Position numbers and translations under genes: made by a program. Shown here piece by piece: positions 13,070 through 61,590 of a stretch of 64,000 nucleotides of DNA (within the stretch, counting starts at the first letter, position 1; the number at the start of each line of letters is the position of its first letter). The DNA comes from a virus, in the IMG/VR virus record IMGVR_UViG_3300045988_183361; one strand, 5' to 3'. The notes beneath the pieces were generated by a model. The model ran no database searches and had not been told where the DNA came from. It was given only the letters and a program-made list of their open reading frames with translations.

Positions 13070-13126
13070 CATGAACTACTCACAACCGACTATTGTCGGA
13101 TGGAGTTTTCTTACAATTCTTCGATA
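13070..13126 (+). repeat. dispersed 57-nt hairpin repeat, copy 1
   Basis: ATGAACTACTCACAACCGACTATTGTCGGATGGAGTTTTCTTACAATTCTTCGATAA. Confidence 0.8.
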
Positions 13127-13158
13127 ATATTTAAAGTTTTCATAAAATTCCTTTCTTT

Positions 13159-13617
13159 TTACAATGTACTTTTTATAACCTTAACAGGTTCTAATCTGCC
13201 GTTTATAAATGAAGCAGTTCCTAATGTTTTATCAGTATTTTTAGAAGATTCAAAGAAATCATTTGCCATATCCTCATTTGAAAAATATGAATATTCTCCT
13301 GAATTGTCTCCGCAATCTGACTCATATCCTATCCAAACATAATAAAATGAAAATCTTTCAAGGTTATCACTGTCGTCAGGGATTGCTCCGTTCCAATCAT
13401 CATTTTCTTTTATATCTTCTTCTAATTCATATTTAAACTCGCTCATCATATTAGGATCGTCTAAATATACACATTTATGGTAATTATCAACTGCAATTGC
13501 GCATTTCTGTCCTAATGGATGCAGTAAATAATTCTTAGGCACTTCCAATAATGCTCCTATCATATCATTTACTGTTTCTAAGTTATTTTCCTTAATTTCA
13601 AATGCATTAGTTTTCAT
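13159..13617 (-). CDS. hypothetical protein
   Basis: ORF track; box at 13654. Confidence 0.5.
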   Translation of the reverse strand: MKTNAFEIKENNLETVNDMIGALLEVPKNYLLHPLGQKCAIAVDNYHKCVYLDDPNMMSEFKYELEEDIKENDDWNGAIPDDSDNLERFSFYYVWIGYESDCGDNSGEYSYFSNEDMANDFFESSKNTDKTLGTASFINGRLEPVKVIKSTL

Positions 13618-13701
13618 AATTTTATTCTCCTTTTTAAATTTTATAATAATACAATGACAGAAAAATAAAAAAACTGGCTACTAATAGTAACCAGTTTAAT
13701 T

Positions 13702-14691
13702 TTATAACTTTACAATTTTCTCATTAACTTCCATTCTAAATGTATTGATTTTGTCTATATCCGGCTCATCTGGCAATACAGAGTTTTTACATGCATTTTC
13801 AAACTTATTCTTGTATTCATCTACTATTTCAAAGAAATGTTTATTAGGGATTCCATTTTCATCAAGATATACACCATTTCTAATATCCATCAACAAATCA
13901 TGTTCTTTAATTCTTTTCGTTTGAATTTTCCCTTCAGAAACTAAATCAATTCCCATCATATACAATCTAAGTAAATGCATACTATGTTTTGCTATTTTAC
14001 CATGATTTAATGCATGTTCATTCCTTTTACTTGTTTTCCGGTAATCTCTTAAAGTGTTATTAAATTCTGAAAGCATTCCTGACAAATCTTCCATTGAACA
14101 CTGTGTTGCAATAATATTGCATTTGATTTTGCCGTCAACCAAATAAAAAGACACATTATTTTCATCTAAATTGTACTTATCGTTCATTTTCTTGGACATA
14201 TTATTAAGCACTCCAGAAATGTGTCTATTTAATTCTTCTTCCGTTAAAGCAGCGTTGGTCTTCTGCTGCATACGGTATAACTGTTGTAATGCATATTCAC
14301 TAAATGTATTAATACATCTATTCGATAAAAAAATATCTTTATTTTTTAATAAAAGCTCCCCAAATTCATTTTTATAAATATAATCATCTGTATCTAATCC
14401 TAAAAGTTCAATAGTGTTTGGATTGCATTTAGCTAATAAATCAATAATTTTGTCAAAACTATAAATAGTTGTATCTGTATTAACATCTACAAAATTTTCA
14501 AAATCATTACCTAACAAGATATCTTCTTTTCTTCTAACAGCAACTCCTCTTATATCAATATCGCTTTCTGGAAGATTTGTCCCATATGCTCTGCTACCAC
14601 CTAATCCAAGTATACAAATATTCTTATCTAAATTTTGATTTTCCTTTAAAAATGAATACTCAGGCATATTTAATATATTTTTATTTATCAT
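13702..14691 (-). CDS. nucleotidyltransferase-fold protein (PF10127/COG3541-like)
   Basis: ILGLGGSRAYGTNLPESDIDIRGV matches the GS-x5-G-x6-SDxD motif of pol-beta-superfamily NTases. Confidence 0.6.
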   Translation of the reverse strand: MINKNILNMPEYSFLKENQNLDKNICILGLGGSRAYGTNLPESDIDIRGVAVRRKEDILLGNDFENFVDVNTDTTIYSFDKIIDLLAKCNPNTIELLGLDTDDYIYKNEFGELLLKNKDIFLSNRCINTFSEYALQQLYRMQQKTNAALTEEELNRHISGVLNNMSKKMNDKYNLDENNVSFYLVDGKIKCNIIATQCSMEDLSGMLSEFNNTLRDYRKTSKRNEHALNHGKIAKHSMHLLRLYMMGIDLVSEGKIQTKRIKEHDLLMDIRNGVYLDENGIPNKHFFEIVDEYKNKFENACKNSVLPDEPDIDKINTFRMEVNEKIVKL

Positions 14692-14713
14692 ATTCTCTTC
14701 CCTATCCTTGTAA

Positions 14714-14769
14714 TTAAACTACCCACAACCGGCTATTGTCGGTTGGGGTTTTTTGCTTAATTGCGATAA
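14714..14769 (+). repeat. dispersed hairpin repeat, copy 2 (diverged, with compensatory stem changes)
   Basis: TTAAACTACCCACAACCGGCTATTGTCGGTTGGGGTTTTTTGCTTAATTGCGATAA. Confidence 0.7.
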
Positions 14770-14779
14770 TATCATTCTT

Positions 14780-15412
14780 TTATTTTCTAACAATAGCAGA
14801 AAAATCTACTGACTGTAAAATCTTAATGATATCTTCTACTTCAGGACTTCTCCATGCAGTCATAGCATAGGTATGAGCGTACTCATCGTAATGATAATGA
14901 TTTGCCTTTAGATGTTCAGCGGCTGCCTTTTCTGTTAAAAACATTGTGTTTTCATAAATTTTATCTCTATATGCATAACAGGTGAAAGTATATCTGCCAT
15001 AATTATGCTCATTCAACCAAGTCTTTAAATCATCAAGATCAGCTAAACATTCCTCATAATCATTATCTTCTTTTGATGTAACATAATATCCATCATATTC
15101 TTTTGAAATAACCCAAGAATCACCGTTTTCTTCAAATTCCTTATTAAAAAATACAATTGCATCATCAATATTATCAGCAACTTCTTCGACTGCCTCATTA
15201 TCTATTAATGTTACACCGTCTTCATATCCTTCTGGAACAATACACTTTTCTTTCCCCATAATAACCCAAAATCGAGGATCAGCTTGTCCTACATGGTCCT
15301 GTGTATTTAATTCATGCTGCAAATCAGACAAAAATTTGATTTCTTTATCTGTAATTTTATGTTTCTCTACTGTGTCTGGATGGTATTGTAAATGTTCATG
15401 AAATATTGCCAT
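14780..15412 (-). CDS. hypothetical protein
   Basis: ORF track. Confidence 0.5.
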   Translation of the reverse strand: MAIFHEHLQYHPDTVEKHKITDKEIKFLSDLQHELNTQDHVGQADPRFWVIMGKEKCIVPEGYEDGVTLIDNEAVEEVADNIDDAIVFFNKEFEENGDSWVISKEYDGYYVTSKEDNDYEECLADLDDLKTWLNEHNYGRYTFTCYAYRDKIYENTMFLTEKAAAEHLKANHYHYDEYAHTYAMTAWRSPEVEDIIKILQSVDFSAIVRK

Positions 15413-60738: not shown

Positions 60739-60754
60739 AAATCCTCCTTATATA

Positions 60755-60955
60755 TTACGCAATTTTATCTTTAAATTTTTCGAAAGCTTCTTTTGTAAAT
60801 TGTGTATACATCCCAGAATCATTTCTTACTGATACGAAATCGCCAAATGCTATACATTCATATGTATGCCCTTTTGTCCAGCATCCATAGAATGATTCAT
60901 TAGTATCAGATAAAGTTTTATTTGCCTGCACATTAAAAACAATATGTTCTATCAT
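60755..60955 (-). CDS. hypothetical protein
   Basis: ORF track; TGTCAG-variant box at 60995. Confidence 0.45.
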   Translation of the reverse strand: MIEHIVFNVQANKTLSDTNESFYGCWTKGHTYECIAFGDFVSVRNDSGMYTQFTKEAFEKFKDKIA

Positions 60956-61081
60956 TTTGAATACGCCTCCTTTAATTAATTGATGTAATATATATGTCAG
61001 AAAAATAAAATTGGATATAAATTTGTAAATTCATTTTATATATAGTATATTATTAAATATTGTAAAATTAAGGAGAGTAAA

Positions 61082-61481
61082 ATGAATATGAACAAACTTA
61101 ATATTTTTTTCAATTGAATTTGGAAACGGAAAACTATTTTTTGTTGGAAAGAATGAGTCTATTAAATATATAAAAAATCATTTTAATTGGAAAGATATTC
61201 ATAATGATGTGGTTAATATAAATGTAATGACCGATTTAGCAATAAAAAACAATGTATTTGTTAATATAATGCCTAATAATATTAAGGATAAATTATATGC
61301 AAAATTATTTATTATTTCTAAACTAAAGAAACATAAATTATGGATGTCTTTTGATCAATATTTAGCTGCTATGTGTTTTACGGAAAACGGTAAAAAAGAA
61401 ATAAAAATGTTATTGAATATGTCTGATGATGACATAGATTTAATCTGTAAAAATTCAGAATGGAATAAAATTTTTAAATAA
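61082..61481 (+). CDS. plus-strand gene interrupted by a frameshift in a T7 run (133 aa if one T is removed)
   Basis: ATG 61082 with strong SD AAGGAGAG reads 11 codons to TGA; the ORF-track frame 61209..61481 is open back to 61092 but has no ATG or SD of its own; frames meet at TTTTTTT 61104-61110. Confidence 0.4.
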
Positions 61482-61483
61482 AT

Positions 61484-61531
61484 AAAAAGACTTAGTATGA
61501 TACATATTATATACATACTAAGTCTTTTTAT
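61484..61531. terminator. bidirectional intrinsic terminator between convergent genes
   Basis: AAGACTTAGTATG...CATACTAAGTCTT perfect 13-bp hairpin flanked by A-run and T-run. Confidence 0.6.
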
Positions 61532-61533
61532 AT

Positions 61534-61590
61534 CTGAACTACTTACAACCGACTATTGTCGAATGGAGTTTTCTTGTTTAATTGCAATAA
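61534..61590 (+). repeat. dispersed hairpin repeat, copy 7
   Basis: CTGAACTACTTACAACCGACTATTGTCGAATGGAG...; between convergent genes. Confidence 0.75.

Follow-up and report, generated by a model that had tools for sequence, protein, structure and literature searches.

A 64,000-nt stretch of viral DNA (IMG/VR record IMGVR_UViG_3300045988_183361), the whole of which was analysed and is called the window below, carries seven copies of a 57-nt hairpin repeat in one orientation (the + strand as first written; pattern matching and profile search). We conclude that the repeats are very probably terminal-only miniatures of an IS200/IS605 insertion sequence (IS) whose parent form carries tnpB only, that is, elements of the kind described as palindrome-associated transposable elements (PATEs), which persist where they are harmless and are not gene-regulatory leaders. 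Each 57-mer consists of a TTAT target and a 53-nt terminal-only element, which lacks the length to encode a protein and whose ends (CGAAG... and ...GTTCAT) are not inverted repeats. Since the minus strand carries nearly all window genes, the biologically relevant reading of the repeat is the reverse complement, which is sense to those genes: TTATCGAAGAATAGCAAGAAAACTCCATCCGACAATAGTCGGTTGTGAGTAGTTCAT.

The seven same-orientation copies claimed in an earlier note on this DNA were all recovered, with coordinates agreeing within 1 nt (c1 to c7, Table 1). With up to three mismatches allowed, the 57-nt consensus finds three sites in the window (shuffled expectation, 0.00), and a 28-nt degenerate core pattern finds exactly the seven copies and no other site (0.00 in shuffles). 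The 16-nt head of the repeat matches all seven sites and also, on the opposite strand, the terminus of a resident IscB element at 3862-3877 (0.33 in shuffles). A profile built from 49 sequences, searched against the window at a relaxed threshold and with the speed filters disabled, gave no eighth copy.

The parent of the repeat was recognised outside the window. In public collections, from which the related loci and contigs labelled L001 to L079 below were drawn, the core pattern matched loci of human-gut origin only, 7 in viral, 46 in metagenome and 1 in genome sequences; the only match in the reference-genome scan lies on a 29-kb contig of a Clostridia metagenome-assembled genome. Sorted by their flanks, the hits fall into three forms. 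Solo 57-mers occupy ~17 distinct sites (at least 17). At sites of the second form, an unrelated, conserved sequence (...ACAGGGTTACTTACATGTTGAAAAAACATGTAACATA) leads into no more than the final ~37 nt of the repeat, and the DNA beyond is variable; sites of the third have only the first ~49 nt, continued by the conserved ATGAATTGCGCAATAATTT... The 5′-only and 3′-only sites pair up, ~190 nt apart in L045, L017 and L037 and ~1.5 kb apart in L029. The wider pair bounds a full element (L029 7198-8781; 1584 nt including TTAT, ~1.58 kb) with an open reading frame (ORF) for a 462-aa protein that has OrfB_IS605 and Cas12f1-like TNB domains, i.e. a TnpB, and with no tnpA. The parent is thus a TnpB-only (IS1341-type) IS200/IS605 insertion sequence of a family not described before. 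A search of the full parent against Rfam in E-value mode gave nothing relevant, and a search for related loci with the parent TnpB gave no relatives in IMG/VR.

The closer pairs bound 230-nt miniatures without an ORF, located at unrelated loci and sharing one internal junction. They retain the last tnpB codons (...GWDKGVVDIPYAV) together with an RNA of pronounced structure (-55 kcal/mol, z = -5.4), which is presumably the omegaRNA of the element. Because minis with one and the same junction and a preserved tnpB 3′ end lie at unrelated loci, they are classic ORF-less PATE-like derivatives that have transposed.

The 57-mer itself is composed of the two ends of this parent. Left and right parent ends carry, as a direct repeat, a subterminal hairpin module of ~30 nt that is nearly identical in both, GAAA(A)CTCCAnYCRAC-loop-GTYGRTTGTGAG; in L029 the two modules differ by 3 mismatches, and the solo copies match the product predicted for a deletion between them. 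When left ends, solo copies and right ends are aligned, each solo resolves into a left-end head (CGAAGAATAGCAAG or CGCAATYAAGCAAG), one module and the tail TAGTTCAT, the first ~22 nt after TTAT coming from the left end of the parent and the tail from its right end. The same picture emerged when the window was searched by BLAST with the full and mini elements: every copy was matched by element positions 1-49 and by the last 38 nt, and by nothing else, with the 49-nt left-end and the 38-nt right-end matches to both L029 (full) and L045 (mini) found for 7/7 copies. Neither the full nor the 230-nt form is present in the window by this search; both occur in related contigs. The proposal made earlier that the repeat is a REP/PATE-like miniature of the resident IS family is therefore supported, and can be sharpened to the fused ends of a TnpB-only element that is absent from the window.

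We propose that the interior would have been lost from module to module by repeat-mediated deletion (slippage or recombination), so that 53 nt remained: the first ~22 nt from the left end, a single hairpin and the right-end tail of 8 nt. Mobilisation would depend on a Y1 TnpA acting in trans. Genes for such a protein (Pfam Y1_Tnp) lie at the window end and in L073; the hairpins of the IS to which it belongs are different (CGGTAATT...), and with the repeat this IS has only the tail GTAGTTCAC in common.

Insertion sites were compared between strains. Nearly all copies are preceded by TTAT (two variant or degenerate ones by TTAC and GAAT), and the base before it is not conserved. The full element of L029 interrupts an ORF whose homologue in L016 is uninterrupted: the empty site reads ...aatcagaTCAT followed directly by agaaaatt..., and the filled site reads ...aatcagaTTAT, then the element (CG...GTAGTTCAT), then agagcgtt... 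The element, ending in ...GTAGTTCAT, inserts 3′ of T(T/C)AT, terminates in TTCAT and makes no target duplication, which together is the signature of IS200/IS605. The short form behaves likewise. At the c3 site, which lies upstream of the guanylate kinase gene gmk, the allele of L004 is without the repeat and reads cattagTTATtaattatTAGGAGA, and the window and six other contigs read cattagTTAT[53 nt]TAGGAGA (filled and empty pair, L001 and L004). At the c1 site, an 89-aa ORF (MKTLNIINDF...) is intact in L055, where the repeat is missing, and in L019 the repeat follows codon 7 of this ORF. In the window the c1 repeat is accompanied by loss of the next 165 nt of the dead ORF, at the element right end and up to a TTCAT/TTTAT motif; L019 has the element and has kept the 165 nt. 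Copy c4 is absent upstream of a 98%-identical flotillin-like gene in L067 (where the upstream region is different) and upstream of 45-74%-identical flotillin-like homologues in L068-L072, and c6 is absent upstream of a 43%-identical helicase in L063 and L064.

These alleles also decide on the suggestion that the repeat is a preferred target of TnpA, in other words a pre-existing site at which resident IS elements land. Read naively, the long elements have a repeat half on either side; the empty sites (L016, c1 and c3) hold nothing of the repeat except the target tetranucleotide T(T/C)AT (TTAT, or TCAT at L016), and both halves move with the element to unrelated loci. In our view the empty sites already refute this explanation, and we give it practically no weight.

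Deletions that start exactly at the element right end were noticed beside c1 (165 nt) and in a comparison of L017 (2739) with L041 (4050), where ~78 nt after the same mini are concerned. TnpA can choose an alternative site downstream of the right end that resembles the transposon-encoded motif (TEM) (Meers et al., bioRxiv 10.1101/2023.03.14.532601). Use of such a TEM-like site, or occasional self-targeting by TnpB, are speculative explanations of the deletions.

Several observations count against the origin of the solo copies by fusion of parent ends. At no sampled site was a long element of one strain matched by the 53-nt form in another; such long/short allele pairs, and empty sites for the other long elements, were sought, and only L016 (for L029) was found. 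No full-length parent lies within the 64-kb window, and a TnpA with matching hairpins was not identified. The filled alleles of c1 and c3 also lack 7-12 nt of the empty allele, located between two TTAT motifs, and are not perfectly clean. Finally, the solos carry right-end-type hairpins and loops only, never the left-end ATTA or AACT loops, which fits either crossovers strongly biased to the 5′ block, where identity runs longer, or a small number of founder solos that spread.

Some of these facts would also be expected if the 53-nt single-hairpin form were itself mobile, a Y1 TnpA excising it immediately after TTAT and after TTCAT and pasting it at TTAT, with most copies arising by transposition of the short form. 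We take this to be possible, though doubtful. At least 17 distinct solo sites are on record and none of them has a long/short allele pair; the AATA loop is present at ~9 solo sites and at 0/12 long-element right ends; and all solos are chimeras of one polarity. Moreover, a single base separates the target TTAT from the terminal TCAT, and one hairpin could in principle guide both cuts. Mobility of the short form has been considered before, for a 52-bp element (Dyall-Smith 2011, PMC3119063). However, IS200/IS605 transposition as it is known works with a pair of hairpins, one for each TnpA monomer (Meers et al., bioRxiv 10.1101/2023.03.14.532601), and the occurrence of left-end types A and B in solos and long elements alike points to several origins or to recombination. 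The AATA argument is confounded, the long elements being from other strains or lineages, and gene conversion among copies could give the same pattern. That the 53-nt form is a transposon in its own right, the smallest unit of IS200/IS605 type, which is served by TnpA in trans, has multiplied as such and has had its loops homogenised by gene conversion, seems to us rather unlikely. Descent from the tnpB-only parent by loss of its interior remains our preferred explanation of the repeats.

Four loop variants made up of A and T only (AATA, AAAA, AAAT and TAAT; repeat positions 34-37) recur at one site across strains and also across sites (c1, c3 and their orthologues in L019, L034, L008 and L059), and position 15 of both c1 and c3 is T in the window and C in L034. 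The shared variants suggest gene conversion between copies and not independent mutation.

With respect to genes, the copies are found in mixed positions. The earlier note had placed six of the seven in 5′ leaders. Once stop codons, terminators, Shine-Dalgarno (SD) sequences and a recurrent promoter-like motif had been placed in each spacer, only c4 and c6 turned out to be in 5′ untranslated regions (UTRs); c2 and c3 are intercistronic, c5 and c7 lie between a stop codon and a terminator, and c1 is in the destroyed ORF. All copies are in dispensable DNA, and they may have persisted because intergenic spacers, UTRs and one dispensable ORF are places where an insertion does no harm.

Orientation is strongly biased. 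Counting all three forms, 38 of 39 distinct insertion sites are directed along positive GC skew and 36 with the ORF direction. Elements of the IS200/IS605 family insert their active strand preferentially into the lagging-strand template. The bias observed fits such insertion and is inseparable here from the direction of transcription, because these genomes are almost entirely co-oriented. The one common direction of the copies would then follow from insertion of the active strand into a lagging-strand template that is at the same time the sense strand of the co-oriented genome.

The promoter-like motif used in the mapping, CTGTCATAT, is present in the window at 28 sites (0.8 expected), 26 of them on the gene strand (examples: 32907-32915, 47890-47898 and 25752-25760 on the minus strand, 21909-21917 on the + strand). 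It is located ~25-45 nt upstream of an SD and start codon, usually right after a terminator hairpin and T-run, and at several sites TTATGTAAAA is found ~18-20 nt further upstream. CTGTCATAT, with TTATGTAAAA, is probably the two-part promoter of the replicon itself, and is far more regular than the 57-mer. A promoter role for the repeat was rejected, the recurrent promoter-like motif being a different sequence (CTGTCATAT); a match to TGTCATAT beside c1 was likewise rejected as a promoter, since it is coding sequence of the disrupted ORF. Nor does the repeat appear to be a sense-strand terminator: no copy was called on either strand in a scan of 25000-36000, which holds c3-c5. The T-run of the repeat (TTTTCTT) is on the antisense strand and apart from the core stem.

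The hairpin of the repeat is real. In a structure alignment of 49 distinct sequences (four 56-nt copies were padded with one A in an unpaired A-run, which leaves the paired columns unaffected), CCGAC-loop-GTCGG with an extended stem has 90% of its cells paired, and predicted stability ranges from -8 to -19 kcal/mol. Double changes occur in 4/14 pairs, with 12 compensatory cells against 5.4 in shuffles, and 1/500 shuffles reaches the observed value. Covariation is thus modest, as expected of a transposon-end hairpin. The covarying stem announced earlier holds to this extent; the particular changes cited for it in c2, c5 and c6 are single ones, which leave a C-A or A-C mismatch on the sense strand (a C-A mismatch in c5 of the window strain).

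A stable hairpin with some compensatory changes could also be a cis-regulatory element of mRNA leaders, exapted or original, that controls stability or translation of the downstream gene. Copies c3, c4 and c6 are indeed situated between a promoter-like motif or an upstream ORF and an SD, and the c3 end adjoins the SD. Yet c5 and c7 are in 3′ UTRs ahead of terminators and c1 in an ORF that it has disrupted; the repeat is missing from the orthologous genes of a close variant (L004, L055), of L067 and of relatives further away; and the stem is decayed in some alleles, e.g. in L002 at the c4 site. Nucleotide diversity among orthologous alleles is 0.035-0.053 in the repeat and 0-0.05 in the flanks, so that the repeat is no more conserved than its surroundings. 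Searched against Rfam at gathering thresholds over the whole window, it matches no family, HEARO at the IscB element being the only hit. Hairpin and covariation are already accounted for by the structure of a transposon end. A leader-RNA role, as proposed in the earlier note, is accordingly highly improbable in our judgement. Nothing points to selection for a host function, and we infer that the copies have none.

Another RNA-based explanation is suggested by the 3′ end of the repeat, where the last hairpin of the presumed omegaRNA and its tail are preserved and the would-be guide position follows immediately downstream. The copies might then be orphan guide-RNA stubs, in which ~37 nt of omegaRNA scaffold end together with adjacent gene sequence load TnpB and direct it to gene starts. 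These ~37 nt are only about a quarter of the structured ~150-nt RNA that the minis keep, no conserved promoter precedes the copies, and the window has no cognate tnpB. We consider the idea extremely unlikely and hold to terminal-only transposon derivatives.

Two other elements of related type reside in the window, an IscB element and a tnpA-tnpB IS (Table 1). The HEARO match at the former starts at 3878, with GTGAACTAC..., and the segment resembling the repeat (TGAACTACCCACCACC, 3862-3877, 2 mismatches) is at position 1 of this hit; repeat-profile positions 41-56 match + strand 3862-3877. In IscB elements the omegaRNA scaffold originates from the right end of the transposon and has the guide on its 5′ side (Meers et al., bioRxiv 10.1101/2023.03.14.532601). 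It follows that the IscB element, on the other strand, ends in ...GGTGGTGGGTAGTTCAC: the first 17 nt of its omegaRNA, read on the + strand, are the right-end tail that it has in common with the repeat. At the right end of the tnpA-tnpB IS the tail also matches the repeat and the hairpin differs; this element ends in ...CGGTAATTCAATTACCGATGTAGTTCAC and the parent of the repeat in ...GTCGGTTGTGAGTAGTTCAT. All three element types (TnpB-only, tnpA-tnpB and IscB) share the right-end tail GTAGTTCAY. The matches to the IscB terminus and to the tnpA-tnpB right end that had been pointed out before are therefore genuine, and reflect this common tail and not descent from either element. Because the hairpins of the element types differ and the TnpBs of the parent and of the tnpA-tnpB IS are only 30% identical, the repeat is, as judged from sequence comparison, a relative of both resident elements and a derivative of neither. 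The presence of one right-end tail in three types of elements with guide-RNA nucleases suggests that they may use a common transposase.

The tnpB of the resident tnpA-tnpB IS occupies 62487-63743 and starts at an ATG (the TTG start called by the program is wrong); its tnpA (Y1) continues past the window end at 64000. A third IS200/IS605 type was seen in one strain only, at L004 8180-9540, between the methyltransferase and gmk genes. It codes for a 374-aa TnpB with an HTH_OrfB_IS605 domain, has different end hairpins and splits an 84-aa ORF. Next to the IscB element, a DUF5688 gene (313 aa, 3859-4800) extends into the IscB omegaRNA over the first ~20 nt of the latter and ends at that point; for this reason the IscB element appears to have inserted into, or replaced, the 3′ end of the gene. 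Transcription of the DUF5688 gene would, on the evidence of this arrangement, supply the omegaRNA guide.

The repeat can be compared with several known systems. REP sequences, which depend on REP-associated tyrosine transposases (RAYTs), are likewise short single-hairpin intergenic repeats tied evolutionarily to IS200/IS605 ends. Repetitive extragenic palindromes (REPs) have not arisen by deletion from a recognisable IS that shares their termini; they usually form inverted pairs and rely on a RAYT gene that has been domesticated. Here, in contrast, copies are single, have one direction and bear the exact termini of a TnpB element; the search for a RAYT covered only the IS-borne Y1 tnpA. Solo long terminal repeats (LTRs) of retroelements offer an analogy only: there too, recombination of directly repeated ends deletes the interior and leaves a hybrid end, but the element class and transposition chemistry are unrelated, and the repeated unit here is a 30-nt hairpin module and not a whole LTR.

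The closest counterpart is found in Haloquadratum, where a 1500-bp IS1341-type transposon has given rise to a 52-bp terminal-only PATE by deletion between two near-terminal palindromes, and where strain-specific insertions of the 52-bp form led the authors to ask about its mobilisation (Dyall-Smith et al. 2011, PMC3119063). In H. walsbyi (52-bp forms of HqIRS46 and of the IS1341-type ISHwa23), and as we propose in the window too, a tnpB-only IS605-type parent of ~1.5 kb is cut down to ~52 bp, with the interior lost between directly repeated near-terminal palindromes. Both sets of elements lack inverted terminal repeats and target duplication, follow a short target oligonucleotide and show strain-specific insertions. 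The repeat agrees with the PATE class of Dyall-Smith in every testable property. The differences are that the elements described here inhabit a large, low-GC phage-like replicon of the gut and not a haloarchaeal chromosome, have TTAT as the target and TTCAT as the right end, and are accompanied by 230-nt intermediates that keep the presumed omegaRNA. The structure is already known from Haloquadratum (2011); the host replicon here is an unusual one.

ORF-less PATE-like elements encoding omegaRNA have been reported from Geobacillus stearothermophilus (Meers et al. 2023). They too are non-autonomous, have the ends of TnpB or IscB elements and form several families with similar ends, in which the target-adjacent motif (TAM) and the TEM (TTCAC there) differ at few positions; the last five bases of the common tail found here resemble this TTCAC. 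As depicted, the Geobacillus PATEs have a left and a right end, like the 230-nt minis, whereas the 53-nt form has one hairpin and no complete omegaRNA.

The assignment removes a candidate new regulatory RNA and puts a documented kind of transposon relic in its place. For a family of TnpB elements so far undescribed, found in a large phage-like replicon of the human gut, it provides the exact boundaries together with the target (TTAT) and the terminal motif (TTCAT). It also adds a bacterial or phage counterpart to the haloarchaeal 52-bp PATEs, and bears on the question, posed in 2011, of the mobility of single-hairpin stubs. In genome annotation, recognition of such stubs would prevent miscalls of riboswitch-like leaders and mark past insertion sites of TnpB elements.

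Table 1. Repeat copies and related element ends in the window
Feature	Position	Strand	Remarks
Copy c1	13071..13127	-	Within dead small ORF, after codon 7
Copy c2	14714..14769	-	56 nt; left-end type B CGCAATTAAGC; intercistronic, 10 nt past upstream stop codon and 22 nt ahead of the start of an RlaP-family nucleotidyltransferase gene (Pfam context)
Copy c3	25511..25567	-	Intercistronic; directly after stop codon of 49-aa ORF, up to SD of guanylate kinase gene
Copy c4	32811..32867	-	Left-end type B; 5′ UTR of flotillin-like gene, ~40 nt downstream of promoter-like motif CTGTCATAT
Copy c5	34886..34942	-	3′ UTR, between stop codon of gene 34989-35423 and terminator hairpin 34833-34860
Copy c6	47818..47874	-	5′ UTR of 641-aa DNA helicase gene; begins 15 nt after CTGTCATAT
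Copy c7	61534..61590	-	Left-end type B; 3′ UTR, 3 nt past stop codon of gene 61594-62310 and ahead of two-way terminator hairpin
IscB omegaRNA (Rfam HEARO)	3665..3878	-	Resident IscB element; iscB 2327-3586
tnpA-tnpB IS right end	62384..62411	-	Hairpin CGGTAATTCAATTACCG, then ATGTAGTTCAC

The window belongs to a 28% GC replicon of the human gut, with identical genes on metagenome contigs of 126-812 kb and relatives entered as viral in IMG/VR. It covers a replication module: DnaE split by an HNH gene, primase, UvrD, a RecJ-like protein, helicase, methyltransferase and guanylate kinase. Most window ORFs have no Pfam match and the window has no tRNAs; a Mob_Pre relaxase and integrases are encoded near this region on related contigs. 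For these reasons the replicon is termed phage-like here, with no claim that it is a phage. Upstream of the tnpA-tnpB IS, past window position 64000, L073-L079 extend the view to contigs of up to 812 kb, where the neighbours of the IS are a Mob_Pre relaxase and a PARP-domain protein, with two tyrosine integrases in one variant. The replicon may be plasmid-like or a phage-plasmid and not a plain phage.

The alpha subunit of DNA polymerase III is divided among at least three separate ORFs (8546-10231, 15781-16539 and 17429-19270), and a free-standing HNH endonuclease gene (HNH_3, 16702-17220) lies between two of them. A gene for a 449-aa protein (21965-23314) is on the + strand, opposite to nearly all others, and has its own CTGTCATAT motif at 21909 (+). 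It is found in L001-L003 and L006 and is absent from L004 and L005, and looks like a polymorphic inserted cassette. Our own scan gave no Pfam match for its product; the precomputed table gives PF27142.

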